Positions 5,929 through 27,420 of a stretch of 64,000 nucleotides of DNA are shown here, piece after piece. Source of the DNA: Myxococcota bacterium (GTDB lineage Bacteria; Myxococcota_A; UBA9160; SMWR01). A program made the position numbers and the translations under genes. Under the pieces are notes generated by a model. The model did no database searches. It worked only from the letters and a program-made list of their open reading frames with translations, and was not told the DNA's origin. The stretch spans positions 108,703 to 172,702 of the forward strand of contig DATBRV010000062.1 of assembly GCA_036560145.1 (NCBI GenBank), read 5' to 3'. The stretch's first letter is position 1; every line of letters begins with the position of its first letter.

Positions 5929-6932
5929 TTTGATTGAGCTTCGCTCGCCTGCGGCTCGCTGCGCGCTCTGCTTGCGGCGTCCAGCGCAACACACAGGCCC
6001 GCGAGGTAGGGAAGCCGGGGGCCGAGCCCGCTCGGAAGGATCTTCAGATCGCGGCCCAGCAGCGGCCAGACGCGCGCGAGCACCTGCTCGCGCACGGGGC
6101 CCAGACACAGCGATTCGCCGGCGGCGCTCGGGATGGTGCCGAGGATCACGACCTCGGGCGCCAGCAGGAAGACCAGCGCCGTGATACCGCGCGCGAGGTA
6201 ATCGTTGTAACGGGCCAGCTCCGAGAGCGCGAAGGCGTCGCCCTCGCGCGCCGCCTCCACCACGTGCTCGGGGCGCGCCCGCTCGGGCGCGCCAGCGAGC
6301 GCCGCCACCCGGCTGCCGGCGGGCGTCGTGCGCGCCAGGCGCCGCGTCCAGGCGGCGCCGCCCACGTAGGCTTCGAGGCAGCCCCGCCCCCCGCACGCGC
6401 AGGCTTCCCCGTCCCACTCGACCGGCGCGTGCCCGAGCTCCCCCGCCATCCCGAGGTTGCCCGCGTAGAGCCTTCCGCCCAGCACCAGGCCGGCGCCCAC
6501 CCCCGTCGACATGGTCAGGAAGGCGACATGCTGGAAGCCGCGGCCGGCGCCGAAGCGCCACTCGGCGAGCGCCGCCGCGTTGGCGTCGTTCTCGACGCGG
6601 ACCGGCAGCCCGAGCCGCTCGCCGAGCAGGCGCCGGATCGGGACCTCGCGCCACCCCGGGAGGTTCGGCGGGTGGAGCAGCACGCCGCTCGCAGGGTCGA
6701 GGGGGCCCGGCGCGGAGACGCCGACCCCGCGCAGGTCCGAGACCGCGAGCCCGGCTTCGGCGCAGAGCGCGCGCGCCTCGTCGGCGAGAGCCGCCAGATC
6801 GCGTTCGGGATGCTCCGTGAAGCCCGTGGGCCGGCGCCGCTGCGCCCGCAGCCGGCCCTGCTCGTCGCCCACCGCCAGCGCGAGCTTGCTGCCGCCGATG
6901 TCGATGCCGAGCCAGAGCGGAATGAAAATCAC
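5925..6932 (-). CDS. ROK family sugar kinase (glucokinase-like)
   Basis: N-terminal LGIDIGGSK ATP-binding motif. ROK zinc motif GHAPVEWDGEACACGGRGCLEAY. GTG start at 6932. Confidence 0.85.
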   Translation of the reverse strand: MIFIPLWLGIDIGGSKLALAVGDEQGRLRAQRRRPTGFTEHPERDLAALADEARALCAEAGLAVSDLRGVGVSAPGPLDPASGVLLHPPNLPGWREVPIRRLLGERLGLPVRVENDANAAALAEWRFGAGRGFQHVAFLTMSTGVGAGLVLGGRLYAGNLGMAGELGHAPVEWDGEACACGGRGCLEAYVGGAAWTRRLARTTPAGSRVAALAGAPERARPEHVVEAAREGDAFALSELARYNDYLARGITALVFLLAPEVVILGTIPSAAGESLCLGPVREQVLARVWPLLGRDLKILPSGLGPRLPYLAGLCVALDAASRARSEPQASEAQSN

Positions 6933-7074
6933 CTGTCAAGTCAGGCACTTACGGGGAGCATCCGCGAGCATATCACAGCCCTTGAGCGCGACCGCCGAAT
7001 CGCCGATGGAGAAAGCCTAGACCCTGCGAGCGCGTGCCGTCGAATCTGCCGGTCGGCGCAGGGAGGGGGGCCGA

Positions 7075-7506
7075 ATGCGATCCGCGAGATGGCTCGTGCT
7101 GTGTGCGTTGCTGCTGCTCGGGCCGACCGGGTGCATCACCTGGTTCACCGATCCGATGGGCCACAAGGCCGCCTTCGACCAGATCCAGCGCCAGTACACC
7201 CAGTACCTGCGCTGGGGCGAGATCGGCAAGGCCAGCGCCTTCGTCGACCCGGCGCTGAAAGAGGCCTTCCTCGCGCAGGCGCCCGTCTTCGAAACCATGC
7301 GCATCACGGATTTCGAGATCGGCGAGCTCGAGTACACGAGCGACAGCGCGAAGGTCTCGGTCACCTACCAGGGCTACTCCCTCGAGACGTTCGTCGAGCG
7401 CAAGATCCGCGAGGATCAGACCTGGTATCGCGAAGGCAACAACCGCTGGCTGGTGCGCAGCGACGTCGGGGGCTTCGCCAAGGTATTCGGAGAGGCGCGA
7501 CCGTAG
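7075..7506 (+). CDS. hypothetical lipoprotein
   Basis: Shine-Dalgarno GGGAGGGG lies upstream. Lipobox LLLLGPTGC. GC3-rich codons. No domain recognised. Confidence 0.6.
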   Translation: MRSARWLVLCALLLLGPTGCITWFTDPMGHKAAFDQIQRQYTQYLRWGEIGKASAFVDPALKEAFLAQAPVFETMRITDFEIGELEYTSDSAKVSVTYQGYSLETFVERKIREDQTWYREGNNRWLVRSDVGGFAKVFGEARP

Positions 7507-7542
7507 CGGAGAGCGCGCCGCACACCGGACAGGAGAGCGCGG

Positions 7543-8280
7543 GTGGAGACCAGACGCTGCATTCTGATCGTCGATGACACCCCTCTGTTTCGCGATCTCG
7601 AATCCCTCTTCCTCGCGCGCTCCGGGCGCGTGGTCACGGCGCGCGACGCCGACGAAGGCCTCGCCGCCCTGCGCCGCGAGCGCCCGGACGTGGCGGTGAT
7701 CGACCTCCACATGCCGGGGACCGGCGGCGACGCGATGTGCCGCGCGATCAAGGCGGATCCCGAGCTCTCGCACACGCCGGTGATCCTGGTGATGGGCTCC
7801 GACGCGCCGGAGGACCACGCCCTCGCGATCCGGGCGGGCGCGGACGACGTGCTCGCGAAGCCCTTGAGCCGCGTGACGCTGATCCACGCCGTGAACCGCT
7901 TCCTGCGCTCGCCCGTGCTGCGCGGGCTGGCGCGCGTGCGCCTCGAGACGGCGGTCCGCATCCGCCTGCCCGACGAGGACGCCTGGGGCACGGTCCGCAA
8001 CCTCTCGCGCGGGGGTCTCTTCGTCGAGCTCGATCACTCGATCTCGCCCAGCACCGAAGTCGAGCTCGAATTCCGGCTCCCCGACGGGCCGACGCCGCTG
8101 GCCCCCACCGCCCAGGTGGTCTGGCACCGCCCGGGAACGCCGGGCGCGCCGATGGGGCTCGGCCTCCAGTTCCTCGCGCTGGACGGCGCCAGCGCGCAGC
8201 GGATCGAGGCGTTCGTCTACGAGCATCTGCCCGCGGCGCCGCAGGGGCTGCTCGCCGCGGTCGCCCTGGAGGCTGGATGA
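7543..8280 (+). CDS. response regulator with C-terminal PilZ domain
   Basis: Receiver motifs ILIVDD, VIDLHMPG, LAKP. PilZ-type motifs RVRLETAVR and NLSRGGLFV. GTG start after AGGAGAG. Confidence 0.8.
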   Translation: METRRCILIVDDTPLFRDLESLFLARSGRVVTARDADEGLAALRRERPDVAVIDLHMPGTGGDAMCRAIKADPELSHTPVILVMGSDAPEDHALAIRAGADDVLAKPLSRVTLIHAVNRFLRSPVLRGLARVRLETAVRIRLPDEDAWGTVRNLSRGGLFVELDHSISPSTEVELEFRLPDGPTPLAPTAQVVWHRPGTPGAPMGLGLQFLALDGASAQRIEAFVYEHLPAAPQGLLAAVALEAG

Positions 8281-8639
8281 GGCGCTGGAGCCTGCTCGCA
8301 TTGATTCTCGGACTCTGTTTGTCCGCGGCCCCGCTCCGGGCCGACGACGACGCGGAATTCGCGTCCTGGCGGGAGCGCCTCGAGCAGGCGCAAACGGATC
8401 TGATCCGCGCCCGCGAGCAGGCGGCCGCCGCGCACGCCGCCTACGTGGACATGCGTCACGATCGCTCGATGCGCGGGGAAGAGAAGGCGAAGATCATCGC
8501 CGCGCGCGCCAGCACCGAGCACGCCGCCGCGGACGCGCAGGCGCGCTTCGACGCCTTGCGGGAGGAAGCGCGCCGCGCCGGGGTTCCGCCCGGCTTCGTG
8601 CCGCCGGACCCGCCCGCCGAGGCCAGCCCCGACTCCTGA
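8277..8639 (+). CDS. secreted coiled-coil protein, unknown function
   Basis: ATG 8277 overlaps the upstream stop (ATGA). Signal peptide MRRWSLLALILGLCLSAAPLRA, followed by Ala/Glu/Arg-rich helical sequence. Confidence 0.5.
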   Translation: MRRWSLLALILGLCLSAAPLRADDDAEFASWRERLEQAQTDLIRAREQAAAAHAAYVDMRHDRSMRGEEKAKIIAARASTEHAAADAQARFDALREEARRAGVPPGFVPPDPPAEASPDS

Positions 8640-9221
8640 TCAGTACGGGAGATCGAACTCGGACTCGTCGTGGATGTCGGTGGTGACGCTCCACTCGCGC
8701 AGCCGCGGCCGCAGGATCGAGAGGATCTGGTCGCCCTGCCGGACCACCTGCGTCTGGCGGGTCACCGCCTTGCCTTCGGGCCGCGTGAAGAGCGTGTCGA
8801 CGACGATCGGCTCGCTGCTCATGTTCTGCGAGATCTCGACGGAAGGCTCGTAGCTGTTGGCGCTCTGCATCGAGAGCGAAGCCGTCGAGCCCGTGCCGCC
8901 CGCCACCATCGCATCGTCGCGGCGCGCGACGGGCCGCGCATTCACGCTGCGCAGGTACGCGAGGCGCCGGTCGAGCTGCTCGGCGTAGCGCTCGGCCGCC
9001 GCGTCGTCGGAGGGCGTGTAGCGCTGGTAGTCCCCGAGCCGCCCCGCCTCGCGCTGCTTCGCCTGGTCGCGATAGCGCGCGGGGATCGCCTTCGGATCGT
9101 CCGTGAAGGCGTAGCCACCGTCCTCGGTCCGCCAGGAATAGACCGGGTCCGCCGAGGCCGGCGCGGCGAGCGCCGCGAGCAGCAGGATCGCCCCGGACGA
9201 AAGGAGGAATCGCGAACGCAT
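8640..9221 (-). CDS. secreted protein with DUF4124-like N-terminal motif
   Basis: Signal peptide ...LAAPASA followed by DPVYSWRTEDGGYAFTDDP, a DUF4124-like pattern. Convergent with 8277..8639 across the palindrome TGATCA. Confidence 0.6.
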   Translation of the reverse strand: MRSRFLLSSGAILLLAALAAPASADPVYSWRTEDGGYAFTDDPKAIPARYRDQAKQREAGRLGDYQRYTPSDDAAAERYAEQLDRRLAYLRSVNARPVARRDDAMVAGGTGSTASLSMQSANSYEPSVEISQNMSSEPIVVDTLFTRPEGKAVTRQTQVVRQGDQILSILRPRLREWSVTTDIHDESEFDLPY

Positions 9222-9343
9222 CTGAGGTGCTCCATGGGGGTTTCAATACACCCGTATAGTGGCACCTGGCTGACAAAAAATGTCAACTTTTTCAGTATCT
9301 TGGCTGCGCAACCCCGGCGCAAACCGCGCGCAGGCGGGCTGGT

Positions 9344-9372
9344 TTGACAGGCCTGCCCGCAGGGGATATACG
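9344..9372 (+). promoter_or_regulatory. candidate sigma-70 promoter of tRNA-fMet
   Basis: TTGACA (9344-9349), a 17-nt spacer, then TATACG (9367-9372), about 15 nt upstream of tRNA position 1. An AT-rich tract lies upstream at 9275-9305. Confidence 0.4.
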
Positions 9373-9387
9373 TCCAAATCGCTTTGT

Positions 9388-9464
<77 letters not shown>

Positions 9465-9471
9465 CCTAGAG

Positions 9472-9507
9472 CAGACGCCCGGCGCCCTTCGTAGGCCCGG
9501 GCGTCTG
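9472..9507 (+). terminator. hairpin H1 downstream of tRNA-fMet
   Basis: CAGACGCCCGG pairs with CCGGGCGTCTG (11 bp, 14-nt loop), followed by CCGTTCTT. The same hairpin recurs at 10992-11026 and 16072-16106. Confidence 0.5.
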
Positions 9508-9811
9508 CCGTTCTTGGTGACGACTCGAATCGGCCCTCGACCGGGTCGCGCAGTTCGGTGTGGTCTGGGACGCGCGGAGCCGAGGGCTTCTCGCCCGGCA
9601 ACTCCGCGCTAAAGCCGCAGTTCGCACGGCGGAATCACCGACGCCCGTTGGCGTCGCCCGCCGCCATCGTGCTCAATCCGCGCCGCTGTCGTGACGTCTC
9701 CACACGAGCGGTCAACGTGCAAGGATCCCGCACGGCCGGCTGGGGAAAACCTGGCGGACTCCCACCACGAATACGCCCCCGGCCTCGAATCACCATCGGT
9801 CACAACGGGCC

Positions 9812-9877
9812 GCTATGCAAGAAGCTCCAAGGGCACCCGCAGCGCGTCGCGCATCGTGAAAATGCCCCCCCCGCTAC
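9812..9877 (+). repeat. acceptor-mimic repeat unit, copy A
   Basis: GCTATGCAAGAAGCTCCAAGGGCACCCGCAGCGCGTCGCGCATCGTGAAAATGCCCCCCCCGCTAC. It aligns with units B1, C and D and ends in poly-C plus GCTAC, like the tRNA 3' end. It lies 193 nt upstream of the 10070 start. Confidence 0.65.
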
Positions 9878-10069
9878 GGGGGGCGTCGCGGAGAGCGGCC
9901 CGACACGATGGGCGGCGGTGGGGTTTCTCAGCTCTTTGGAAGGGCGAACTAGCTCTTCCCGCTGGTGTATTGATCCGGGGAGGCGCAGTGTGGGGCAAAC
10001 GATGGGAAGGGGCGCGGTGGTGGGCGTGCCGCCGGGATCCTCTTCCGTTATTTGCGAGAGGGGACTCCA

Positions 10070-10810
10070 ATGCGCCGTCTGCTACTGATCGCGTTCGCCG
10101 TCCTCGTGGCCCCGGTTCTCGCCCCCGCTGCGTTTGCGGTCGGAATCAGTTTGGGGGGGGTAAGCGCAATCGATCCCTCCGCGTGTAACACCTCCACATG
10201 CGATTCCGGTACTCCCTACGTACCTACGACCTTGCCCGACTCGGGCACGGTGAGTGCCACCTTCGCCGGAAACAGCTCGACGATAGGCTACAACCTTTCG
10301 AACTCTGCGTTCATGATCACCTTTGACGAGACTAGCGGGGTAAACCTGAATGACACAGGGTACGTCATCGCACAAATCGATTTCACTCCCGACGCGAACG
10401 TGGACTACTCGCTTGATGGGGCCTACGGCGCCCTCGACGCAGTCGCTGGTTATGATGCCCTTAGCGTTAGTCTTGTTGACCTCACTGACAGTGTCGCTCT
10501 ATTTGTAAACAGCCAAGTTAGCATCGGGACCCCCTTTGAGAGCTTGACTCTCGGGCAAGTAGGCGGCGACTGGAGCAACTCCTTATCCGGCTCTCTCAGC
10601 GGCAGCCTGATCGCCGGCCACAACTACCGGTTCAACGCGCAATCTCAGAAGGCGAACCTTGGCGCCTCCGCTGGTGCGTCGGCGAGCGGCTTCGTCAATC
10701 TAACCTTCATCCCCGAGTCCGGCACGGGCCTGCTCGTGATGACAGGCCTACTCGGGCTTGCGTACCGGCAGCGGCGACATGGGCGCGCAGTGAATCGGGC
10801 CCGCCGGTAG
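10070..10810 (+). CDS. PEP-CTERM sorting-domain protein (Ser/Gly/Asn-rich ectodomain)
   Basis: ATG 10070 follows GAGAGGGGA. Signal peptide MRRLLLIAFAVLVAPVLAPAAFA. C-terminus IPESGTGLLVMTGLLGLAYRQRRHGR is a PEP-CTERM-type tail. Third codon positions are visibly more A/T-rich than in neighbouring genes. Confidence 0.8.
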   Translation: MRRLLLIAFAVLVAPVLAPAAFAVGISLGGVSAIDPSACNTSTCDSGTPYVPTTLPDSGTVSATFAGNSSTIGYNLSNSAFMITFDETSGVNLNDTGYVIAQIDFTPDANVDYSLDGAYGALDAVAGYDALSVSLVDLTDSVALFVNSQVSIGTPFESLTLGQVGGDWSNSLSGSLSGSLIAGHNYRFNAQSQKANLGASAGASASGFVNLTFIPESGTGLLVMTGLLGLAYRQRRHGRAVNRARR

Positions 10811-10851
10811 CCTCCGGGAACACGCGGCTAGAGAAACCGCTCGCACTCGGC

Positions 10852-10989
10852 CTACGCGACGAACTCGAGCGGTGCCCGGAGCGCGTCTCGACTGGTGAAA
10901 ATCGCCCGCCTCCCCCGCTACGCGGCGAACTCGATTACCGCCTCGACCGCGCGTCGGGCGTTCCAAAGCGCCCCCCCGCTACCACCTAG
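10852..10989 (+). repeat. two head-to-tail acceptor-mimic units (B1, B2) ending in a copy of the tRNA-fMet 3' end
   Basis: B1 is 10852-10921 (CTACGCGACGAACTCGAGCGGTGCCCGGAGCGCGTC...CCCCCGCTAC). B2 is 10917-10986. The stretch 10973-10989 CCCCCGCTACCACCTAG is identical to tRNA positions 9453-9469. Confidence 0.75.
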
Positions 10990-10991
10990 AG

Positions 10992-11026
10992 CAGACGCCC
11001 GGCGCCTTCCCAGGCCCGGGCGTCTG
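10992..11026 (+). terminator. hairpin H1, second copy
   Basis: The stem arms are identical to 9472-9507. The whole stretch 10973-11031 matches 9453-9512 except in the loop. Confidence 0.5.
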
Positions 11027-11068
11027 CCGTTTCGAGCGCCAGATCGAGCCGTCCCGGTCCGCTTCGCT

Positions 11069-11353
11069 TCAGCCCACGCCGTCGCCGCGCGTGCACGTGC
11101 CGCTGTTGTTGTCGCCCGAATAGCTGTGATTGCTCTGCTGGCAACGGTCCTTGAAGGTGGCGCAATCAGAGGCCGCGTCGGCCTTGCAGGTCTTCACGTC
11201 GCAGCGCACCCCATCCGAATTGGGAACCGTGCAGTTCGTGGTCCTCGCGACCGGCTGCGGGCCATTGTCGGTATCCATGACGTCGCCGGCCGGTGGTTTG
11301 GAGCAACCATGGGCGATCAACAACACGGTGCAGGCGAGCAGGATTCGATTCAT
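11069..11353 (-). CDS. small Cys-rich lipoprotein
   Basis: GGAGAG Shine-Dalgarno 4 nt before ATG 11353. Lipobox LLIAHGC. Eight Cys in the precursor including the lipobox Cys (seven in the mature chain). Confidence 0.6.
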   Translation of the reverse strand: MNRILLACTVLLIAHGCSKPPAGDVMDTDNGPQPVARTTNCTVPNSDGVRCDVKTCKADAASDCATFKDRCQQSNHSYSGDNNSGTCTRGDGVG

Positions 11354-11368
11354 GATTCTCTCCGGTAG

Positions 11369-11818
11369 CTACATCCGTCCCAGGTCGGTGATGGCGTCGA
11401 GCACCATTCCCGTGCCGATCGCGATCAGCAGCACATCGTTCGCCACGCGCACGAAGCGGTAGCCGGGCGGCGGCACGCCAAGCTCGACGACCAGCGGCGG
11501 GGGCAGATCGTAGAAGATCAACTCGCGCGGCAGGGGCCGGCCGATCGTCCAGAGCTTCTTCGCCTGCCCCGGCGGCAGGCAGCCGTTGTTCTTCTTGGCG
11601 AGGCCGGGCGGGCAATGGCCCGCCCCGATCTCCTTCGCGTACCAACCGCGCACCGCGGCCTGTTGGGGCTCGTCGAAGCGCACCTCGACGCGCTGCTTCC
11701 CCTGGTCGTCGTGGCCGTGCTTGCCCTTCTTTCCGTGCTGCTCGTTTCCGGCCCAGGCGGGTCCGCCCGCGAGGGCGGCCACAAGGGCGAGTGCGAGGAT
11801 CGAAGACGGATGGGTCAT
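11369..11818 (-). CDS. RcnB/CigR-like periplasmic protein
   Basis: GGGAGGA Shine-Dalgarno. Signal peptide ...LAGGPAWA. His/Lys-rich stretch, then CPPGLAKKNNGCLPPGQAKK...PPPGYRFVRVANDVLLIAIGTGMVLDAI, the pattern I associate with the RcnB/CigR family. Confidence 0.65.
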   Translation of the reverse strand: MTHPSSILALALVAALAGGPAWAGNEQHGKKGKHGHDDQGKQRVEVRFDEPQQAAVRGWYAKEIGAGHCPPGLAKKNNGCLPPGQAKKLWTIGRPLPRELIFYDLPPPLVVELGVPPPGYRFVRVANDVLLIAIGTGMVLDAITDLGRM

Positions 11819-11980
11819 GGAATCCTCCCGTGACGGAATCGGACGATAACCCGCCCACGGCAGCCGGCCTCCCGACCTCCTGGGCGGCCTCGAGCTCGAA
11901 GCCTTGCGCGGTCAATCGCTCAGGGATTCCCTGCCAGCTCGCGCACCAGCCGGCGAAGGAACTCCAGGGCCGCGCATGGG

Positions 11981-12052
11981 GCTACGCCGCGAACGCGAGC
12001 GGCACGTGGAGGCCCGCCTGCATTCGGACAAATCGCCCCCCCCCGCTACCAC
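11981..12052 (+). repeat. acceptor-mimic repeat unit, copy C, ending in a tRNA 3'-end copy
   Basis: GCTACGCCGCGAACGCGAGCGGCACGTGGAGGCCCGCCTGCATTCGGACAAATCGCCCCCCCCCGCTACCAC. The core 12040-12052 equals the tRNA 3' end through CCAC. It ends 160 nt upstream of ATG 12212. Confidence 0.7.
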
Positions 12053-12054
12053 TT

Positions 12055-12087
12055 GAAGCCCCCGGAATCGAAAGGTTCCGGGGGCTT
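12055..12087 (+). terminator. hairpin H2
   Basis: GAAGCCCCCGGAA pairs with TTCCGGGGGCTTC (13 bp, 7-nt loop). A related hairpin lies at 13281-13313. Confidence 0.45.
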
Positions 12088-12211
12088 CGTCTTCCAGGCC
12101 CCCAACATTCTGGCCGTCTTCTGACATTTTCTGGTCGCAGCGACCACAACCAATGCCACCAATTCGTCCTGCCGCCCACATACCCATCGTACGACCCTGG
12201 GAGGGACGTCG

Positions 12212-13090
12212 ATGGCCCCGCCTGTTCGCTCGCTCCTCACTCGTCGCTTCGGTCTTGCGTCGGGTCCCTTTTCGTCGAGAGGGTTCCGGCGTTGCTTCTG
12301 GCGAGAAGTCTCACTTCGTTTGATGGCAGCCTCGCTCGTGTTTGCGGTTGCGGGACGAGCCATGGCCACGGAGCTGGTTGGTTCCAACTATATTGTTCCC
12401 AACACACTAATAAGAATCGACACCTCGACTGGGGCCGGTACGGCGGTCGGTCCGTTGGTCGAGAGCGTGAGGGGCCTCGCGTTCGACACAAACACGGGCA
12501 CCCTATATGGGACGCTGTTCGCTACGGATTCACTTCTTCTAAGAATCAATTACTCGACGGGAGCGGCGACAGTGGTCGGTTCGTTGGGATCCGTAGACCC
12601 CGAGGGACTCGCGTTCGACCCCAACACGAATACGTTGTACGGGACGAATGTCTTTACGGATCAACTCTTGACGATCGACACCTCGACCGGAGCACCTACG
12701 GCCGTCGGCGCACTGGGTTTCCCCGCCGTGGGCGGACTCGCATTCGACCCCAACACGAATACGTTGTACGGGACGGATTTCATTCTTGACCGACTTGTCA
12801 CGATCGACACTTTGACCGGAGCGGCGACAGAGGTCGGTCCGTTGGGTATCCCGCGCGTGGAAGGTCTCGAGTTCGACCCCAACACGAATACGCTGTACGG
12901 AACGGGTACCATCAGTGACGAACTCTTGACGATCGACACCTCGACTGGGGCGGCCACTGCGGTCGGCCCGTTGGGGTTCGGATTTGTGGTGGGCCTTGCT
13001 GTCGTCCCTGAACCCTCCACCGCGCTCCTCCTTGGCGCCGGTCTCCTGATGTTCGCAAGCGCAAGGCGACCGACCCAGCGACTGCATTGA
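12212..13090 (+). CDS. PEP-CTERM protein with tandem 43-aa beta-propeller-like repeats
   Basis: Strong Shine-Dalgarno GGGAGGGA 5 nt before ATG 12212; ATG 12323 is an alternative start. Repeats GLAFDPNTNTLYGT....D.LLTIDTSTGAATAVGPLG. C-terminus VPEPSTALLLGAGLLMFASARRP. Confidence 0.8.
   Translation: MAPPVRSLLTRRFGLASGPFSSRGFRRCFWREVSLRLMAASLVFAVAGRAMATELVGSNYIVPNTLIRIDTSTGAGTAVGPLVESVRGLAFDTNTGTLYGTLFATDSLLLRINYSTGAATVVGSLGSVDPEGLAFDPNTNTLYGTNVFTDQLLTIDTSTGAPTAVGALGFPAVGGLAFDPNTNTLYGTDFILDRLVTIDTLTGAATEVGPLGIPRVEGLEFDPNTNTLYGTGTISDELLTIDTSTGAATAVGPLGFGFVVGLAVVPEPSTALLLGAGLLMFASARRPTQRLH
12470..12997 (+). repeat. coding tandem repeats, 129-bp period
   Basis: GGACTCGC(G/A)TTCGACCCCAACACGAATACGTTGTACGGGACG recurs at 12605 and 12734, with the variant GGTCTCGAGTTCGACCCCAACACGAATACGCTGTACGGAACG at 12863. 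More diverged copies lie upstream. Confidence 0.8.
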
Positions 13091-13209
13091 GATGCACTCC
13101 GCTTCGGCCCCGGCCGGGCGCGACCCCACAGAGGCGGCACGGGCGCGCAGCATAGGGGGTCCGCCCGTAGCGTCGGGGACTCGCGGCACGGGCAATGGTT
13201 TACGCTCAA

Positions 13210-13282
13210 GCTACGCGACGAGCTCGAGCGGCACGCGGAGGGAGTCGGACATCTGACGTAGCGCCCCCCCGCTACCACCTAG
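13210..13282 (+). repeat. acceptor-mimic repeat unit, copy D, ending in a tRNA 3'-end copy
   Basis: GCTACGCGACGAGCTCGAGCGGCACGCGGAGGGAGTCGGACATCTGACGTAGCGCCCCCCCGCTACCACCTAG. The stretch 13266-13282 is identical to tRNA 9453-9469. Confidence 0.75.
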
Positions 13283-13320
13283 GCCCCCGGAACCGCGATG
13301 GTTCCGGGGGCTTCCTTTTT
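13281..13320 (+). terminator. intrinsic terminator-like hairpin H2' with T-run
   Basis: GCCCCCGGAACC pairs with GGTTCCGGGGGC (12 bp, 5-nt loop), followed by TTCCTTTTT. Confidence 0.6.
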
Positions 13321-13890
13321 CAGGCGTTGGCGATAGTGGTGGGACTCTGGTGGGACTTCTCGCCGAGCCGGGCCAGCAGATCCGCCGGCACCTCGCCGGG
13401 GCCGGCCTCGAGCGGCCTCCGGAAGGCGTCGTCGCCGCACCAGCGCGCGTAGTGCCGGGCCGTCACCGCGACGTCCGCGTGGCCGAGCTGCGCGGAGACG
13501 TAAACGAGCTGCATCCCGGCCGAGAGAAGCTGCGAGGCGTAGGTGTCGCGCAGGTTGTGGGGCGTGTACGACGCCCACACGCCGTGTTCGTCCAGGGTTC
13601 CGATCCCCGTCGCCTTGCACAGACCGCGGAGCGTCCGGTTCCGGTAGTTGGCGTGGTCGACCCGTGCCACGAACCCCGACTCCGGCCTCCCCTCGCGCAT
13701 CCAGGTCTCCCTGAGTGCGCGCCGGAGCCGCCGCGACAAGCGCCGCCACGTCCTCCGGCTTCTCGATCGGCTGCGCCTTGTGGCCGGCCTCGTTCTCCGC
13801 CCTGCCCTTCTTCGTCTGGTTGCGCCGCCGCAGCACCGCGCGCACGCCCCGGTCCGGGGAGCGTATCAAGGCGGCCTCGGGCCCGATCAC
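13320..13890 (-). pseudogene. tyrosine recombinase (phage-type integrase), frameshifted and internally deleted
   Basis: Frame 13320..13739 holds the C-terminal catalytic region ...YTPHNLRDTYASQLLSAGMQLVYVSAQLGHADVAVTARHYARW (H-x-x-R, H, Y). The linker-like piece ...PIEKPEDVAALVAAA sits in another frame (13741-13890). The segment that should carry the first catalytic Arg and the Lys is missing. Confidence 0.7.
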
Positions 13891-13925
13891 GCGTTACGGC
13901 TGGAACGTCGAAGAGGATCGCTGGA

Positions 13926-13998
13926 GCTACGGCGAGGGCCCACCCGGGTCGCGCGAGCTGACACCCCTGATGAAGCTGGTGCTGTAGACGGCCCGCTA
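13926..13998 (+). repeat. acceptor-mimic repeat unit, diverged copy E
   Basis: GCTACGGCGAGGGCCCACCCGGGTCGCGCGAGCTGACACCCCTGATGAAGCTGGTGCTGTAGACGGCCCGCTA. Both ends align with unit D. It ends 160 nt upstream of the 14158 start, the same distance as unit C from 12212. Confidence 0.5.
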
Positions 13999-14157
13999 GG
14001 GGTGACCCGAAACGCACCTCACGCAAATCCGAAATACCCTTCCCCCAGGCAACACTCGAGTGTAGCCTGCAAGGTCGGGAAGGGGATCCGGAAGGGGATC
14101 TCCGTGCAGACTGCTGTTCGCCCTCGCCGCGGACTTGACCTTCGGAAGGGCGAGACT

Positions 14158-14838
14158 TTGCAGACCAAGCGATATCTGTTGATCCTCGTGTCTCTGGGGC
14201 TGTGCGCACCAGCGGCTGCCGCTCCCATCACAATTCCCACAAGTCTCGATCCGGGGGACGAATATCGCCTAGCCTTCGTGACGTCGCCTAAACGCAACGG
14301 GGCGTCTTCGCTAATTGCGTCCTACAACGCCTTCGTCACCGACGTCGCCAACACCCAGGCCGCGCTGGCGTCACTCGGCACCACGTGGAAGGCGATCGGC
14401 TCAACGGCGACGGTCGATGCACGGGATAACACCGGCACGAACCCGGTCGTCGATGGGGTCGGGGTCCCGATCTTCCTCCTGAACGACACATTGCTGGCAG
14501 ACGACAATTCCGACCTGTGGGATGGAGACATCCTTGTGCCATTTGCGATAGATGAAGCAGGCGCGGTGAGTCCGTTGAGCTTCGTCTGGACCGGCACGAC
14601 TTCGTCGGGTGTTGCTCACCCTTTCCCCTTGGGCTCCGAGGAACCGGTGATCGGCACAACCGGGATGACGAATAGCAACTGGGTGGATGGCGCCAAACTC
14701 TTTTCGTTCTTGGAACGGCCCGTTTACGCGGTGTCCGATGTCTTGATCGTCGTCCCCGAGCCCGGCACCGGCCTCCTCGTGATGACGGGCCTACTCGGGC
14801 TTGCATACCGGCAGTGGCGCCAGCGGCGCGAAGCGTAG
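14158..14838 (+). CDS. PEP-CTERM sorting-domain protein
   Basis: No ATG lies near the signal peptide. TTG 14158 after GGAAGGG gives (M)QTKRYLLILVSLGLCAPAAAAP. C-terminus VPEPGTGLLVMTGLLGLAYRQWRQRRE. The track ORF from 13648 is an upstream read-through. Confidence 0.7.
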   Translation: MQTKRYLLILVSLGLCAPAAAAPITIPTSLDPGDEYRLAFVTSPKRNGASSLIASYNAFVTDVANTQAALASLGTTWKAIGSTATVDARDNTGTNPVVDGVGVPIFLLNDTLLADDNSDLWDGDILVPFAIDEAGAVSPLSFVWTGTTSSGVAHPFPLGSEEPVIGTTGMTNSNWVDGAKLFSFLERPVYAVSDVLIVVPEPGTGLLVMTGLLGLAYRQWRQRREA

Positions 14839-14928
14839 AGGATCCGCCCGTCGCCCGCGGGGTGTTGCTCGGGCTAGAATCGCCCCGCGATCGCTCGACC
14901 CGCCGCCGGCTACATTTGGGAGAACTCC

Positions 14929-16059
14929 ATGCCGCGCACGTCCCTCCAGCTCCGGTCGAAGATCACGGCAAACGCCCAGCTCGAGCTCTCGCTGGCCGAG
15001 GTGGAAGTCGCCGATCCCGGACCGGACGAAGTCCTGGTGCGCATCGAAGCCGCGCCCATCAATCCCTCGGACCTTGGCCTGCTGTTCGGCCCCGCGGACA
15101 TGCGCACCGCGAAGACTTCCGGGAGTGACTCACACCCGCTGGTGACGGCCGACGTTCCCGCGGACCAGATGCGCGGCGTCGCGGCGCGCGTCGACCAGTC
15201 GCTGCCCGTCGGCAACGAAGGCGCGGGCATCGTGGTCGCCGCCGGCGAATCTCCCGCCGCGCAGGCGCTGCTCGGCCGGACGGTCGGGGTGATCGGCGGC
15301 GCGATGTACGCGCAGCTGCGCAGCACGAAGCTCGGTCAGTGCCTCGCCTTCCCCGACGGAACCCGACCGGCCGAGTGTGCGTCGTGGTTCGTGAATCCGC
15401 TGACCGCGCTCGGGATGGTGGAGACCATGCGCAAGGAGGGCTTCACGGCGCTCGTCCACACCGCGGCCGCGTCGAACCTGGGACAGATGCTGGTCAAGCT
15501 CTGCCTCGCCGACGGTGTGCCGCTCGTCAACATCGTGCGCAAGCCCGAGCAGGCAAAGCTGCTGCGTTCCCTCGGTGCGGTGCACGTCGTCGATTCGAGC
15601 GCGCCGACCTTCATGGCCGACCTGATCCGGGCCGTCAGCGAGACGGGCGCGACGCTCGCGTTCGACGCCACGGGCGGAGGCAAGCTCGCGAGCCAGATCC
15701 TGACGGCGATGGAGGCGGCGCTCAACGCGAAGGCGACCGAGTACAGCCGCTACGGCTCGACGGCCCCGAAGCAGGTCTACATCTACGGCGGCCTCGATCG
15801 CTCGCCCACCGAGCTGACGCGCAACTTCGGTATGGCCTGGGGCGTCGGCGGCTGGCTCCTCACGCCGTTCCTGCAGAAGAACGGCGACAAGGTGCCGAAG
15901 CTCCGCGATCGCGTCGCGGCCGAGATCAAGACCACCTTCGCGAGCCACTACACCCGGGAAGTGTCGCTCGCCGAGGCTCTCTCGCTCGCCGCCATCGCCG
16001 TCTACGGCAAGCAGTCGACCGGCGAGAAGTACCTGATCAACCCCAGCCGGAAAATCTGA
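14929..16059 (+). CDS. medium-chain dehydrogenase/reductase (quinone oxidoreductase / enoyl reductase-like)
   Basis: GGGAGAA Shine-Dalgarno. Motifs VLVRIEAAPINPSD, GNEGAG, and the nucleotide-binding region ALVHTAAASNLGQMLVKL. Confidence 0.85.
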   Translation: MPRTSLQLRSKITANAQLELSLAEVEVADPGPDEVLVRIEAAPINPSDLGLLFGPADMRTAKTSGSDSHPLVTADVPADQMRGVAARVDQSLPVGNEGAGIVVAAGESPAAQALLGRTVGVIGGAMYAQLRSTKLGQCLAFPDGTRPAECASWFVNPLTALGMVETMRKEGFTALVHTAAASNLGQMLVKLCLADGVPLVNIVRKPEQAKLLRSLGAVHVVDSSAPTFMADLIRAVSETGATLAFDATGGGKLASQILTAMEAALNAKATEYSRYGSTAPKQVYIYGGLDRSPTELTRNFGMAWGVGGWLLTPFLQKNGDKVPKLRDRVAAEIKTTFASHYTREVSLAEALSLAAIAVYGKQSTGEKYLINPSRKI

Positions 16060-16071
16060 GACTGCGTAGAG

Positions 16072-16106
16072 CAGGCGCCCGGTGCCTTCCCAGGCCCGGG
16101 CGTCTG
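16072..16106. terminator. hairpin H1, third copy, between convergent genes
   Basis: TAGAGCAGGCGCCCGGTGCCTTCCCAGGCCCGGGCGTCTG (16067-16106) differs from 10987-11026 at 2 positions (3 if the flanking GTCGTT/GCCGTT is included). It lacks the CCCCGCTACCACC core. Confidence 0.5.
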
Positions 16107-16160
16107 TCGTTCCAGACCACGCATCTTCAGCATTCGCGTTCGTCGCGCGCCGAGCACGCC

Positions 16161-16982
16161 TCAATCGGTGCAGGGGCGACCGAGCAGCGCCAACAGGCGC
16201 TCGATCGCGCCGACGATGAGCCGCCGCTGCCGCCGGCGCTCCGGCTCCACGAGGTCCGCGAAGACCTCGTCCATTCCTCGGTCTTGGTACGAGTCCAGGC
16301 TCACGTCCCCACTCACGACCTTCGACGGATCCGCGAGAGTCTCACGACAACGCGCCTGGATCCGCCTGAAGGCGGCCTCGCCGCCCGATTCCGCGGGCCA
16401 GATGCCTTGAACCGACTGCTCCGTCGCGAACTCCTCCCACTCGACCGGTTGGTTGGCACCGGGGTGTATCAATGCCGTCAGTCGGACGGCGCCGGCTTCG
16501 ACGTCCTCCGGGAGCCGCGCGAGTGCGCCGCCTTCGTCGATCACCGTGGCGTCGAAGCCCGTCTCGATGCGAGCCGAACCGTTCTCGAGCGATCCGGCTC
16601 GGGTCGCGTGCCCGCTCGCGAAGGCAAGGTGACCGAAGCGATCGTGATGCGTCTGCGTCGGCAGCGCAGAGTGATGGAAGCCCTGCTCCTCTCGCCTGAC
16701 GGTCGCCCACGAGCCGTCGGAGCGGAGCACCCGGTCGAGGCCAGCGGCGGGATCGAGGAAGAACAGGAACGGCTGGCCTCGCCCAATGGCACGCATCCTC
16801 TTGTACCAGCTGTGTGCTTCCGCGACGTAGAACGGGAAGGCTTCTCGCTGCGCTCGAGTCGGCACCGGTAGATCCCGCACCAGTTGGCGGTAGGTTGCGA
16901 GGTCGAGTCTGGACGCGGAAGCGTGAGCGCTGTCGAGATCTCGTTCGAGTCGAAGGATCAAGTCCGCGGAGAACTCTCCCAT
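16161..16982 (-). CDS. hypothetical protein, no recognisable domain
   Basis: ATG 16982 is preceded by a perfect AAGGAGG. The track start at 17069 is less likely. GC3-rich, 273 aa. Confidence 0.65.
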   Translation of the reverse strand: MGEFSADLILRLERDLDSAHASASRLDLATYRQLVRDLPVPTRAQREAFPFYVAEAHSWYKRMRAIGRGQPFLFFLDPAAGLDRVLRSDGSWATVRREEQGFHHSALPTQTHHDRFGHLAFASGHATRAGSLENGSARIETGFDATVIDEGGALARLPEDVEAGAVRLTALIHPGANQPVEWEEFATEQSVQGIWPAESGGEAAFRRIQARCRETLADPSKVVSGDVSLDSYQDRGMDEVFADLVEPERRRQRRLIVGAIERLLALLGRPCTD

Positions 16983-17264
16983 CGGGTGCCTCCTTCGCAA
17001 TTCCAGGGGAGCGTAGCGGTCCCGGCCGCCGCGCCCGATCCGTGAGACCATCATACAACTGGGTGTCAATCAGGCCGGCGGAGCGCAGGAAGGGACACGC
17101 CGCCCCAATCGTTCGCGCGGCGCACGTTGGACTTGCGACCGAGTCCACTCGCGATCGAACGCACCGCTGTCGCCGGTGAGGCGAAGCCCCTCGAACTCGA
17201 GCTCGCTGCCACCCACGCGCGCAGCCAAGCCACATTCCCTACAGGCAACTCTGGAGGTGAGTCG

Positions 17265-18200
17265 ATGAGCCTGCTTGTCCGTTCGCTCCTCGCTCGTGCG
17301 TTGATGCTGGCCGGATTGCTGACGGCATGGGCTGCGCCGACAGCGAGCGCCAGCGGGATCTATTGGAGCGCGAACGGAGCGATCGGCCGCGCGAACCTCG
17401 ACGGCACGGGCGCGAACGCGAGCTTCATTCCGGGCGTCAATGCGGGTGAAATCGCCGTCGACGCCACGTCCGTGTACTGGACCAGGAACACTGGCACGAT
17501 CGGCCGCGCGAACCTGGATGGCACGGCGGTGAACCCGAATTTCATCTCGGCGATTCCCGGAGTGAGTGGTGTCGCTGCCGACGGATCACATGTCTACTGG
17601 ATCAGGCCAGGCGGTGAAAGTCCAACGATCGGCCGCGCGAACCTCGATGGCACGGGGATCGTCGAGACCGTCGTCTCCGGGGTCGGCCCAGACGCGTCCG
17701 ACCTTGCCGTGGACGGATCGCACCTCTACTGGGTCAATGCCGGTGTGAGCGGTGTTGCCAGCGCGAATCTCGACGGCACCGGAGTAGACGAGATCGTGAT
17801 CGTTCCGGGTTCTTGCTGCTATTTCAATCAGATTACCGACATCGCCGTCGGTGACTCGGGCCTCTACTATGCCTACGTGGGCGTGCCGGTGCACTACATG
17901 TTTCCGCCCACAGGCGCGATCGAGGGCGGGCGGGGGAGCATCTCCGGGACCGATCTCTCTCCGCGCGGTGTCGCGCTCGACGAGACGTTCGTCTATTGGA
18001 CGAATTTATACCCAGCCTCGGGGATCTGGCGCGCGAACCTCGACTTCTCTGGGGCAACGCTCCTGATCTCGGGCGGATATGGAGATATTGCGGTGTCGCC
18101 CGAGCCCGTGCCCGAGCCCTCCGCGATCCTGCTGCTGATGGCAGGACTGGTGGGGCTTGCGTACCGGCAGAGGCGGCACGCGATGCCTCAATCTGCCTGA
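17265..18200 (+). CDS. PEP-CTERM protein with YWTD-type (LDL-receptor class B-like) beta-propeller repeats
   Basis: GGAGGTGAG Shine-Dalgarno. Signal peptide ...WAAPTASA. Repeated (I/V/L)YW(S/T/I/V)....G.IGRANLDGTG blades. C-terminus SPEPVPEPSAILLLMAGLVGLAYRQRRH. Confidence 0.8.
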   Translation: MSLLVRSLLARALMLAGLLTAWAAPTASASGIYWSANGAIGRANLDGTGANASFIPGVNAGEIAVDATSVYWTRNTGTIGRANLDGTAVNPNFISAIPGVSGVAADGSHVYWIRPGGESPTIGRANLDGTGIVETVVSGVGPDASDLAVDGSHLYWVNAGVSGVASANLDGTGVDEIVIVPGSCCYFNQITDIAVGDSGLYYAYVGVPVHYMFPPTGAIEGGRGSISGTDLSPRGVALDETFVYWTNLYPASGIWRANLDFSGATLLISGGYGDIAVSPEPVPEPSAILLLMAGLVGLAYRQRRHAMPQSA

Positions 18201-18916
18201 TAGACCTTCGATTCCTGGACTCGTGCGCGCAGACGCTGGCGTTCGTCGCGGAACTTCGCGCCCTCGACGCTGATCCACGCCTTCTGGAACTGGGTCCACG
18301 TCAGACCGTCCGCCAGGCCCTTCGGTTCCGGCAGGAAGAGCGTGCCTTCGAAGCCGCTGCCGCATCGCTCGATGGCCTGCTTCGAATCCGCGCCGGCGAG
18401 CCATTCCGCGAAGGCGATGCCGGCGGCGTTCGCGTTCAGATCGGTGAAGCTGAAGCCGGTGCCCGCGCCCTTCTCCTTCCCCTTCGCGTCGGCCACTTCC
18501 TTCTGGATGCCGAGCGACTCGGCCAGCTGCTCTCCGACGAGGAGCGCTAGACCACCGCTCAAGGCGAAATGAACCAGCCAGTCCTCGCGTCCGCGGAGCG
18601 TCGGCTTGCCCATCGCCGCGAGGCGGGACGTGCGGTCGCTCGCCGTCTCCACGTTCTTGAAGATGTCGCCGGAGAACGGATTGCGTGCGAGGGTGTCGGT
18701 GGGATCGAGCGCGTAGGCGAGTGCGTAGACGACTGCCTCGGGCGATTCGCCGGAAGCGCAGGCGCGGCGGACGTAGAAATCGGCGAGTGCATCGCCGGAG
18801 AGGCGCTCCTTCTCGGGTTTCGCGGCGTTCTCCCTGGCGGCCGAACCGATCGCCGTCACGACGATCTGCACGGGCGCGTCGAGCGGCGCGAGGAGGGCCG
18901 CCATGAGGAGTAGCAT
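18188..18916 (-). CDS. hypothetical protein
   Basis: GC3-rich 242-aa ORF 21 nt downstream of 18938..19492 on the same strand. No clear Shine-Dalgarno or canonical signal peptide. Confidence 0.5.
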   Translation of the reverse strand: MLLLMAALLAPLDAPVQIVVTAIGSAARENAAKPEKERLSGDALADFYVRRACASGESPEAVVYALAYALDPTDTLARNPFSGDIFKNVETASDRTSRLAAMGKPTLRGREDWLVHFALSGGLALLVGEQLAESLGIQKEVADAKGKEKGAGTGFSFTDLNANAAGIAFAEWLAGADSKQAIERCGSGFEGTLFLPEPKGLADGLTWTQFQKAWISVEGAKFRDERQRLRARVQESKVYQAD

Positions 18917-18937: not shown

Positions 18938-19492
18938 TCACCGCTTCGGGAAGTTGAAGACGGGAAACACCGGTAGGAAGCCGTTCTCGGCCATGTTGAT
19001 GAAGCCGAACTGGAAGCTCTTGATGCGCTTCGTGACGTTGATGAATCCGATCTGGGCCGTCGACGCATTGGACACGTTGACTCCTCCCAGATCCACCAGG
19101 GTCGTTCCGCTGGCGATGGTGACGAAACCCGTGCTGAAGGCGTTCTCGGCGTCGTTCAGCAGGTTGATGAAGGCCCCGTTCACTCCCGAATCGTTGCCGC
19201 TGTGGAAGTTCACGAGGCTGAAGGCGACGCCCGAATCCATGTTGCCGGTCACCCGGCTCACGCCGCCCACCAGGGCCAGGCCCGAGAAGTTGGACGTCTC
19301 GCTCATGGACAGGAGCCCGACGTCGAGACCGTGTGTGCTGCTGTTCTTGCCCCAGAGGAACGAGAGGCGCATGCCGTTCACCTGCGGATCGCTCGGGACA
19401 TTGAGGTTCGGGAGGCCGAGCTGGAACGGGGTGTCGGCGGAAGCCACGCTCGAGAAGAGGGCCAGACACAGGGACAGGATGACTCGCTTCAC
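18938..19492 (-). CDS. secreted G(F/L)(I/V)N-repeat surface protein (LA_2272-like pattern)
   Basis: GTG 19492 lies 5 nt after AAGGAGG. Signal peptide VKRVILSLCLALFSSVASA. Repeats GFINV/GFINM/AFINL. C-terminal GFLPVFPVFNF. Confidence 0.6.
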   Translation of the reverse strand: MKRVILSLCLALFSSVASADTPFQLGLPNLNVPSDPQVNGMRLSFLWGKNSSTHGLDVGLLSMSETSNFSGLALVGGVSRVTGNMDSGVAFSLVNFHSGNDSGVNGAFINLLNDAENAFSTGFVTIASGTTLVDLGGVNVSNASTAQIGFINVTKRIKSFQFGFINMAENGFLPVFPVFNFPKR

Positions 19493-19721
19493 GACGTCCT
19501 CCTTTGCGGGTGGATGAAGTGCGGCCAGACGGGAGCTTACTGCGCCTGCTGCGCGCCGCGAGGCCGCGCCGCCGGTCCCCGTAAGCCGGCAAGTCGCGCG
19601 CATCCGGGGCGGCGGGATGCGCGACGGCCGCCACGCGCGGGCGTGCAGCGATGCTCCCTCGTCACGCATCGCCCCGTCCTGGCTACGTACCCAGGGAGAG
19701 ACCCATGCGAGAGAAGCGCGG

Positions 19722-20075
19722 ATGAAACGCTGGAACGCCGATCTCGAGAGACGGGAGGCCGTGCGCAAGCCGACGCAGGCGCTTCCCTGCGTGGTGTGGG
19801 TCGGCAGCGATCGCTACGAGGGGGTGCTGGAGCAGGTTTCCGCGCAGGCCGTGGTGGTTCGGATGGAAGCGGTCCTCCCCGATTCGCAAGAGGCGAGGCT
19901 GACGTTCTCGACGCGAAACGGGGCGAGCTTCGTGCTGCGTGCGGTTCCGGTGAGGGGGCACCTCGTGCCGCACACGCTGCGAGGCCTGCTGCCCCCATCG
20001 GTCGTCCTGCGCCTGCGCGAGACGACGGCCGCCTACCTGCGTTGGGTGTTCTCGCCGACCCTGGGCGCGTCGTGA
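19722..20075 (+). CDS. PilZ-like domain protein
   Basis: ATG 19722. RREAVR (RxxxR) near the N-terminus and a small beta-rich body. The second PilZ motif is degenerate. Confidence 0.5.
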   Translation: MKRWNADLERREAVRKPTQALPCVVWVGSDRYEGVLEQVSAQAVVVRMEAVLPDSQEARLTFSTRNGASFVLRAVPVRGHLVPHTLRGLLPPSVVLRLRETTAAYLRWVFSPTLGAS

Positions 20076-27287: not shown

Positions 27288-27420
27288 GGGTCACACACTT
27301 TGATGTTGATCGGCGCCTGCATGGTGCCGAACGACTGGCGCGGCTTCAATGGGTCGGCGGGCGACGGGCGCAGGTGCTAGAAAAGCAGCACGGACGGCAG
27401 CCCGCGAGTCTCCCATACCG

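Follow-up and report, generated by a model that had tools for sequence, protein, structure and literature searches.

Why do secreted proteins with unrelated ectodomains end in nearly the same DNA? The question is raised by a window of 64,000 nucleotides (contig DATBRV010000062.1 of a Myxococcota bacterium, positions 108,703 to 172,702; 70% G+C), in which four plus-strand genes, named here PEP1, PEP2, PEP3 and PEP4, end in PEP-CTERM-type tails. An original prediction, made from the letters alone, had proposed that tail and downstream flank form a shared 3' module that is exchanged or gene-converted among cassettes. A single profile indeed detects tail and flank as one unit; the prediction had overlooked the repeats of a tRNA-fMet 3' end with its terminator, an integrase remnant and the family-wide spread of the tail. 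The sequences show that a repeated module extends from the tail-coding sequence to a copy of the tRNA 3' end and a terminator, that within one clade it is joined to numerous unrelated ectodomains, that replacement of a tail has happened at least once, and that the content and order of the units differ between close relatives. The reading that we favour, with a probability of about 0.6, is an array of small integrase-less units anchored at a tRNA gene and reshuffled and tail-converted by recombination. Recombination is indicated by the tail of PEP3, the fossils around PEP2, the partial unit of a PEP1 orthologue and the reordered units of a relative.

Shared tails on unrelated proteins

In PEP1 (10070-10810), the signal peptide is followed by an ectodomain that matches no known family and by a tail of the local family type, with PES as its motif. 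PEP2 (12212-13090; the JGI gene calls place the start at 12323, the alternative ATG being 12212) has DUF4394/DUF6923 repeats according to Pfam and its own, different PEP-CTERM tail. PEP3 (14158-14838) combines the ectodomain of a large, widespread PEP-CTERM protein family with a tail of the local type (14755-14838). PEP4 (17265-18200) has LDL-receptor class B (YWTD-like) repeats (PF00058) and a PF07589 tail (18111-18200), which is a more diverged member of the local family and lacks a module end; the stop codon of PEP4 lies within an overlap with a convergent gene. All four translations show a signal peptide and, in order, the C-terminal motif, a hydrophobic span and a basic cluster. Pfam holds no family for the ectodomains of PEP1 and PEP3, and BLASTP found no match at E<1e-3 among the four ectodomains, in line with the prediction, which had not been able to align the rest of PEP1 and PEP3 by eye. 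Of the four PEP-CTERM genes, three pass TIGR02595 (cut-off 16) with 23.7 bits (PEP2), 19.8 (PEP3) and 22.5 (PEP4), and PEP1 falls just below it (15.4) because its motif is PES instead of PEP. The PF07589 model is passed by PEP3 and PEP4, is borderline in PEP2 (20.5 vs 20.7) and gives no match in PEP1.

The C-terminus of PEP1 also carries a six-codon extension owing to the loss of the ancestral stop; its orthologue P0121 (88%) has the motif PEP and the canonical end ...PEPDTGLLVMAGLFGLAYRQRRHGRAA followed by the stop. The PES motif may be a sign of decay. Loss of the canonical stop has occurred repeatedly in the family (PEP1 at 10776-10810, P0125, P0129, P0130, P0131 and gene M_c of a related metagenome-assembled genome, MAG), leaving 5-6 residues of read-through, terminated by another conserved in-frame TAG that lies in the flank.

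At the DNA level, the tail of PEP1 (10712-10779) is 90% identical over 68 nt to that of PEP3 (14755-14822), inside a homology that spans 112 nt at 81% (10707-10818 and 14750-14861). The six mismatches in 66 nt that had been reported for this pair are found when the segments are set in register (10712-10777 and 14755-14820); the pairing given at first (10711-10776 with 14755-14820) is one base out and yields 49 mismatches. A third related tail was also correctly recognized, with its start misplaced by ~5 nt: PEP4 18111-18178 is 78% identical to the PEP1 tail, and the two have in common the exact 18-mer GGGCTTGCGTACCGGCAG (18153-18170 in PEP4). The similarity noted downstream of the stops had been illustrated by the 9-mer TCCGCCCGT, which lies at 13160-13168 and 14843-14851, 1-2 nt from the positions first given, and is not significant by itself (4 matches vs 1.8 expected), but which falls within real longer homologies (13129-13171 and 14812-14854, 79%; 10760-10887 and 13120-13246, 71% over 128 nt).

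Such similarity might reflect amino-acid-level purifying selection by the exosortase of the lineage only, with no exchange of DNA, which was the null put forward with the prediction itself. It is in keeping with this that PEP-CTERM regions are far more alike within than between species (Haft et al. 2006, PMC1569441), and that the 15 of 20 same-amino-acid codons identical between PEP1 and PEP3 exceed only marginally the 11.0 expected from background codon usage (P=0.05). Judged by the codon usage of the PEP ectodomains, 6.9 would be expected (P=1e-4). Moreover, the common codons are rare ones, including CTA and CTT (background frequencies ~0 for CTA and 0.02 for both CTT and AGG), and in 16 tails, collected with a search pattern that left wobble positions free, CTA is present in 12/16, GGG in 16/16, CTT in 13/16, CGG in 15/16 and AGG in 13/16. 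The homology continues past the stop into non-coding DNA, where a fossil tail is found, the PEP2 tail differs within the same array, and the PEP3 tail is unlike those of orthologues 89% identical in the ectodomain. Rare codons, homology past the stops and the fossil tail make amino-acid selection alone insufficient. Homology in non-coding DNA and the disagreement between orthologues and paralogues already contradict the null, which we consider highly improbable.

Saturated synonymous divergence with all tails equally alike, the pattern which that null would produce, was not observed. Four-fold sites diverge by 0.30 over all tail pairs, by 0.33 when core orthologues of the window organism are compared with those of the MAG, and by 0.51 between paralogous ectodomains of old origin, so that the tails are not saturated. 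They trace back to a common origin at about genus depth, a depth far too shallow for their ectodomains. In a small paired sample, the difference between tails and diverged ectodomains was not significant (0.39 vs 0.51, p=0.10).

A cassette-end module with a copy of an initiator tRNA end

A repeated cassette-end module of ~230-300 nt begins with the tail: ~50 nt of its distal part are followed by TAGGGGGYCCGCCCGTAGC, a stretch of variable sequence, GCTACGCGACGARCTCGAGCGGCAC, the core CCCCCGCTACC(A/T) and, last, a terminator hairpin rich in G+C. An alignment was made of ten cassette ends from four sources, among them the window, the related MAG and metagenome contigs; in it the distal tail GGCCTACTCGGGCTTGCGTACCGGCAGAGGCGGCACGGGCGCGCRGCGTAG is followed by GGGGYCCGCCCGTAGC, the variable stretch, GCTACGCGACGARCTCGAGCGGCAC..., the tRNA-end core and the hairpin. 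The nhmmer profile built from it matches the window solely at 9426-16113, on the plus strand, with E-values down to 7e-48.

The anchor of the array is an initiator-type tRNA-Met with anticodon CAT (9388-9464, plus strand; Rfam tRNA 65.5 bits), the sole tRNA of the window according to ARAGORN and Rfam. The module core copies the last ~13-21 nt of this tRNA-fMet gene, and the module hairpin copies its terminator. The tRNA end CCCCCGCTACCAC is present four times on the plus strand, in the interval 9453-13278 (0.14 copies expected), and is absent from the rest of the window. The displaced cores begin at 10973, 12040 and 13266, and a GC-rich hairpin that runs out in a T-rich stretch follows each of them. 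The hairpin lying directly after the tRNA (9467-9511, plus strand), recovered both as a repeat and by terminator scan, is GC-rich and terminator-like and is called type A here; tRNA end and hairpin together (9434-9512) are 89% identical to 10953-11031, within a repeat family of 89-93% identity. The possibility that the module ends are tRNA pseudogenes was rejected, Rfam recognizing at E<=0.1 no tRNA but the real one.

At least four units lie downstream of the tRNA. A PEP-CTERM gene is present in three of them, the end of one of the three being truncated, and one carries unrelated genes on the opposite strand. All module ends are on the plus strand. A degenerate fragment made of the pre-DR block and CCCCCCCCGCTAC is present in the non-coding stretch upstream of PEP1 (9811-9877; nhmmer E=1e-7, profile 105-171), and its positions 9812-9877 align to 13210-13275. 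In the PEP1 module (10745-11040; nhmmer E=1e-38 and 1e-19), distal tail and flank lead to the core (10973-10985) and a type A hairpin (10987-11031), and the flank contains an internal duplication of ~66 nt (10852-10910 and 10918-10976). Unit 2 carries on the minus strand (11069-11818) a small lipoprotein-like open reading frame (ORF; 11069-11353) and a gene for an RcnB-family protein (11369-11818; PF11776), and is closed at 11979-12099 by the pre-DR block, the core (12040-12052) and a hairpin of type 2 (nhmmer E=6.5e-12, match to 12097); 11981-12099 is 76% identical to 13210-13325. A complete but non-coding module follows the stop of PEP2 (13114-13328; nhmmer E=7e-48), with fossil tail, flank, core (13266-13278) and a type 2 hairpin found by terminator scan (13281-13313); its fossil tail (13120-13171), 30 nt past the stop, can still be read as ..ATPQRRHGRAA with a stop of its own. 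After PEP3, the module is truncated to the distal tail and ~38 nt of flank (14788-14876; nhmmer E=2e-15, profile 1-91), and no tRNA-end repeat follows. Finally, a zinc-type alcohol dehydrogenase (ADH)-like gene with GC3 (G+C at third codon positions) of 0.91 is followed by a type A hairpin (together 14929-16111, plus strand; hairpin 16067-16111, 93% identity), again without tRNA-end repeat (profile match 16068-16113).

In a consensus fold of seven module ends computed with RNAalifold, the terminal hairpin alone is supported by compensatory changes, with no covariation elsewhere, and an attC-like or other conserved fold in the flank was rejected. This bears on the idea that distal tail and flank work in cis as nucleic acid, perhaps as a site of recombination or an element of the mRNA 3' end, and owe their conservation to selection on the nucleotides and not to common ancestry or conversion. 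Such an element would account for the retention of the non-preferred codons CTA, CTT, AGG and GGG in most of the 16 tails across at least six populations, for the two in-frame stops conserved in the flank, and for the persistence of a tail-derived stretch even without a PEP-CTERM gene, as in unit 2, in a fossil of the MAG and in the fossil after PEP2. The restriction of covariation to the terminal hairpin speaks against it, as do a flank identity of ~70-90% and a four-fold divergence of the tails of 0.30, both as expected of neutral divergence at genus depth, and fossil copies that are visibly decaying; we therefore regard it as improbable. Strong nucleotide-level constraint on the tail was likewise rejected, its four-fold divergence being near that of core orthologues.

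Exchange of tails and units among relatives

The proposed exchange or conversion is borne out by the segment-specific incongruence between the tail and the ectodomain of PEP3. Compared with its orthologue L022, PEP3 is 88.7% identical in the ectodomain and 60% after the PEP codons (Fisher p=1e-7), and the corresponding values for contig L021 (ENA ERZ25039555 contig_58148) are 89.2% and 71% (Fisher p=2e-4). The blastn homology with L022 ends at 14759, that is, at the PEP codons, and it is with PEP1, an unrelated paralogue, that the tail reaches 84-90% identity. One segment thus goes with paralogues and the rest with orthologues, as in segmental gene conversion, and the drop from ~89% to 60-71% indicates that the PEP3 tail has been replaced. 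The ectodomain family of PEP3 counts 707 matches, and its closest relatives (72-79% amino-acid identity) bear another tail, VVPEPGTAVLLAMGLVALGGLRRRKV.

PEP1 and its 88% identical orthologue share only the segment 9959-10788, which starts 110 nt before the start codon and stops where the tail ends; their flanks differ. The tail of the orthologue is a different variant of the family (MAGLFGLA...HGRAA before the stop), and distant homologues of PEP1 (33% identity) have VPLPA-like tails. Around PEP2, the 5' region (12154-12244) is 70% identical to the promoter and start region of PEP4 (17207-17297), with ATG 12212 aligned to ATG 17265; with this fossil 5' end on one side of PEP2 and the fossil tail on the other, it appears that an older cassette was overwritten. 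A 5' module shared by all units of the window was rejected, as only PEP2 and PEP4 have a common 5' region. Many cassettes of the MAG and of metagenome contigs (L003/L005/L006, L008, L010, L015, L016 and L020) do have a 5' module, in which TGTGAGAGAATGC, resembling an extended -10 element, lies ~56 nt before the start and is accompanied by a conserved leader and a protein start MRNRA; these cassettes carry unrelated ectodomains. The motif TGTGAGAGAATGC is absent from the four genes of the window.

Contig L021 belongs to a close relative, the ADH orthologue being 96% identical and separated from that of PEP3 by ~7.5 kb. PEP3, the RcnB-family gene (84.5% identical and bounded by module ends there too), the gene at 18938-19768 and ADH all have orthologues on this contig, which lie together with a PEP4-like gene in a different order and with module ends between them. 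The PEP4-like gene possesses the family tail and a full module end. Several genes of L021 are frameshifted, including the tail of the PEP3 orthologue and the PEP4-like gene, probably through long-read assembly error, so that the protein calls of this contig should not be taken at face value.

Scanning the GTDB genomes with a codon-degenerate pattern for M-x-G-L-x-G-L-A-Y-R-Q returned one genome, the MAG MFD05942.bin.2.221 (CAWAXD01), besides one unrelated Flavobacteriales match, and a metagenome scan added eight further family members; in both collections the tail is confined to this clade. It is common to at least 17 genes from at least six Myxococcota populations, with at least ten unrelated ectodomain groups, including FGE-sulfatase domains and several without Pfam match. 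The distribution points to a family-wide tail of a Myxococcota clade and not to a private event between PEP1 and PEP3. The same unit architecture is found in other Myxococcota metagenome contigs. In the MAG, six units follow the orthologous tRNA-fMet, each closed by a module end and 5/6 with PEP-CTERM genes; the two 8-kb tiles on which they lie are adjacent, because an ORF spans the junction. An assembly artefact was rejected, since independent contigs agree at 100% and 99.86%; the former, a contig from a JGI metagenome, is identical to 10218-17187 of the window. The population is represented in the metagenomes JGI 3300035693 and 3300035167 and ENA ERZ25039555.

Some additional features were noticed next to family members. 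An IS21-like transposase with rve and Mu-transposase C-terminal domains closes the array of the MAG (L005 reverse complement, 6163-7473), and an IS200/Y1-type transposase gene (L015, 3529-4278) lies just upstream of another family cassette. At a second locus of the MAG, two more tail-family PEP-CTERM genes stand in tandem just after a tRNA-Val and a tRNA-Arg. The 3' half of this tRNA-Arg(CCG) is repeated at 97% over 36 nt ~700 nt downstream (L006 reverse complement, 5055-5090 and 5795-5829), just before the two genes, making this a second tRNA-linked hotspot.

Origin of the units and comparison with known systems

How the units came to lie beside the tRNA is suggested by what borders the last (fourth) tRNA-end repeat. 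Abutting it is the C-terminal remnant of a tyrosine recombinase/integrase on the minus strand (13320-13814; PF00589, profile 101-167; blastx similarity to 13814), without the N-terminal domain and the first catalytic Arg. In the relative represented by L018, the tRNA-fMet, a type 2 hairpin and an integrase remnant (73% identical) are directly adjacent, whereas in the window 3.8 kb with three units lie between the tRNA-fMet and the junction with the remnant, a layout as would be expected if units had been added at the tRNA. The left flank of L018 is syntenic with the window (74%), and locus L003 of the MAG matches window 5998-9462 at 81% nucleotide identity, then diverges at the 3' end of the tRNA. 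The content to the right of the tRNA thus varies among the window organism, the MAG and L018 beside a conserved left flank, and an intact tRNA is accompanied by displaced 3'-end repeats, with significant identity over its last ~13-21 nt and the downstream hairpin, both as in tRNA-borne islands; the tyrosine integrase that each such island would contain was not found within the units. Dozens of metagenomic homologues of the remnant (P0005, P0006, P0010, P0019 and others) are also ~140 aa long with the same internal Met start (MSRRL...), which may mean that a truncated form is widely conserved or that short contigs led to wrong gene calls. Decayed integrases within every unit were considered and rejected, blastx giving this one remnant alone.

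According to the favoured reading, a tyrosine integrase of the kind left at 13320-13814 would first have inserted the units one after another, site-specifically, at the 3' end of the tRNA, so that small integrase-less islets accreted there. Long identical stretches of the module (identical over up to ~44 nt in many tails) would then have allowed homologous recombination, by which units were shuffled, ectodomains were swapped onto pre-existing ends and the tails were homogenised through gene conversion. The tails would serve as signals for sorting by an exosortase whose gene lies elsewhere in the genome. The weakest link of this scheme is the integrase step; with no intact integrase and no traces in the units, site-specific integration is deduced from the architecture only.

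The absence of integrase traces from the units, the restriction of tRNA similarity to core and terminator, and cargo that moves without its ends make an origin by duplication alone a serious rival. The units would in that case have arisen by tandem duplication and birth-and-death next to the tRNA, with no integrase, their cargo being later replaced by illegitimate or homologous recombination, and the tRNA-end repeats would be by-products of unequal crossing-over and not att sites. Besides the lack of integrase traces and the orthologous cargo found without its unit ends, the repeated block passes beyond the tRNA into its terminator (~80 nt at 89%), and the flank of PEP1 contains a 66-nt tandem duplication. 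Against it stand the position of the integrase remnant exactly at a tRNA-end repeat, the classical island layout of L018 with its remnant directly at the tRNA, the 36-nt repeat of a tRNA-Arg 3' half beside PEP-CTERM genes of the same family in the MAG, and the atypical GC3 of the cargo. For the four PEP genes, lower GC3 had been predicted from inspection and was confirmed (PEP1 0.71, PEP2 0.69, PEP3 0.75 and PEP4 0.77 vs 0.926 for 22 background genes). We consider duplication alone, its account of the repeats included, less probable.

Several observations weigh against integration followed by reshuffling. The window contains no intact integrase, and blastx detects no trace of one in units 1-3 or in the six units of the MAG. 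Upstream of the core, the similarity of the module to the tRNA is not significant, the observed local-alignment score being reached by 15-338 of 500 shuffles. PEP3 and PEP4 lack complete module ends. Units are not conserved whole between genomes, as seen in the PEP1 orthologue (from -110 to the tail end only), and this partial unit fits homologous or illegitimate recombination better than the movement of discrete circular cassettes. The synonymous divergence of the tails is only modestly lower than that of core orthologues (0.30 against 0.33), so that the tails have not been homogenised very recently as a set. No exosortase was identified in the 64 kb, and a sorting function would therefore be argued from family membership alone. 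Finally, neither the tail nor the core-plus-hairpin pattern has any match (0) in the viral contigs of IMG/VR, and carriage by phages or viruses was rejected.

A stronger version of the integration step is that the units are true mobile cassettes, small integrase-less circles with one surface-protein gene each. A tyrosine recombinase acting in trans would recognize a site made of tRNA end plus hairpin and capture the circles at the 3' end of the initiator tRNA gene. We consider this unlikely. If true, the PEP-CTERM tail would lie within the conserved cassette end, and the exosortase-sorted surface proteome of Myxococcota would be diversified by a tRNA-anchored, integron-like system.

The prediction that the window has no exosortase and no PrsK, PrsR or PrsT was upheld by a scan that covered multi-transmembrane (multi-TM) and other large ORFs and not every small ORF: none of six ORFs with at least five hydrophobic segments matches an exosortase model of NCBIfam, a kinase scores 63.8 against a PrsK cut-off of 300, and TPR proteins score 33.9 and 36.8 against 312 for PrsT. 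The sigma-54 'PEP-CTERM box' (TGGCAC-N5-TTGC, up to two mismatches) has 36 matches against 50 expected, none of them upstream of PEP1-4, and a sigma-70 consensus scan of 9300-18400 found nothing. Among the neighbouring genes, a 206-aa secreted protein (54333-54953, plus strand) ends in an IPTL-CTERM sorting domain (TIGR04174, 23.0 bits vs 20.5), so that the genome has at least two classes of C-terminal sorting signals. A 466-aa secreted protein (20950-22350, plus strand; GC3 0.83) without Pfam or NCBIfam family consists of 7-8 tandem repeats of ~58 aa (174-nt period, copies up to 90% identical), and its C-terminus, VPALS..hydrophobic..RRRG, resembles another sorting tail. In addition, a polysaccharide-type cluster without exosortase (27349-35938) holds two large multi-TM/TPR membrane proteins, a family-2 glycosyltransferase and two proteins with 7-9 transmembrane segments and no NCBIfam match.

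PEP-CTERM proteins are numerous in soil and sediment bacteria, and an apparent recent expansion of their tails within each lineage has long been noted without a described mechanism. Haft et al. 2006 (PMC1569441) read the lineage-specific similarity as recent paralogous expansion of a modular domain, and described single-gene operons with long upstream regions and, in Proteobacteria, a sigma-54 box. As in that system (PMC1569441), the locus joins a PEP motif, a hydrophobic helix and an Arg-rich end to unrelated secreted proteins, in single-gene units with long upstream regions and with tails alike within the lineage. Unlike the system as described there (PMC1569441), the similarity is found at the DNA level, includes rare codons and reaches ~200 nt into the non-coding flank, the tail is tied to a repeated end made of a tRNA 3'-end copy and a terminator, tail replacement is evidenced, and no sigma-54 box lies upstream and no exosortase or PrsK/R/T gene in the window.

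Tandem islands marked by displaced tRNA fragments are a standard arrangement (Islander, PMC4383910), and the locus resembles them in having an intact tRNA at one end, displaced 3'-end copies at the boundaries and an integrase remnant adjoining one of these. Atypical base composition, content that varies among close relatives and a syntenic far flank are further points in common with tRNA islands. In the ICESt1/3 family of Streptococcus, integrase-less cis-mobilisable elements (CIMEs) reportedly accrete beside an integrase-bearing element. In contrast to both islands and CIMEs, the units described here measure 0.4-1.5 kb, mostly hold a single surface-protein gene and never an integrase, and their ends share ~230 nt that start inside the cargo coding sequence, with the cargo exchanged independently. 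Integron arrays are similar in their short, mostly single-gene units in one orientation near a tyrosine-recombinase gene, with ends that contain an inverted repeat. However, no IntI-type integrase is present, the remnant being a generic PF00589 member only, the ends lack the R''-L''/L'-R' architecture of attC sites, the units have their own 5' regions, and the anchor is a tRNA gene.

Multigene families of surface proteins evolve in concert by segmental gene conversion, with conserved ends and variable middles. The conserved 5' leader and 3' anchor modules and the phylogenies that are incongruent from segment to segment recall such families, whereas the middles are here unrelated folds (DUF4394 propeller, YWTD repeats, FGE-sulfatase domain and several unknowns). 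The locus offers a concrete, testable mechanism by which unrelated ectodomains could be attached, swapped and reordered via a module. If the units are site-specifically mobilised, they would represent a new cassette system for the diversification of surface proteins; if not, the locus still illustrates clearly how a sorting signal evolves in concert, and it calls for caution in the annotation and assembly of such repeats in MAGs. Compared with all these systems, what appears to be new is the combination of a tail embedded in a module that ends with a tRNA-end mimic, tiny integrase-less units at an initiator tRNA, fossil tails and direct evidence of tail conversion.

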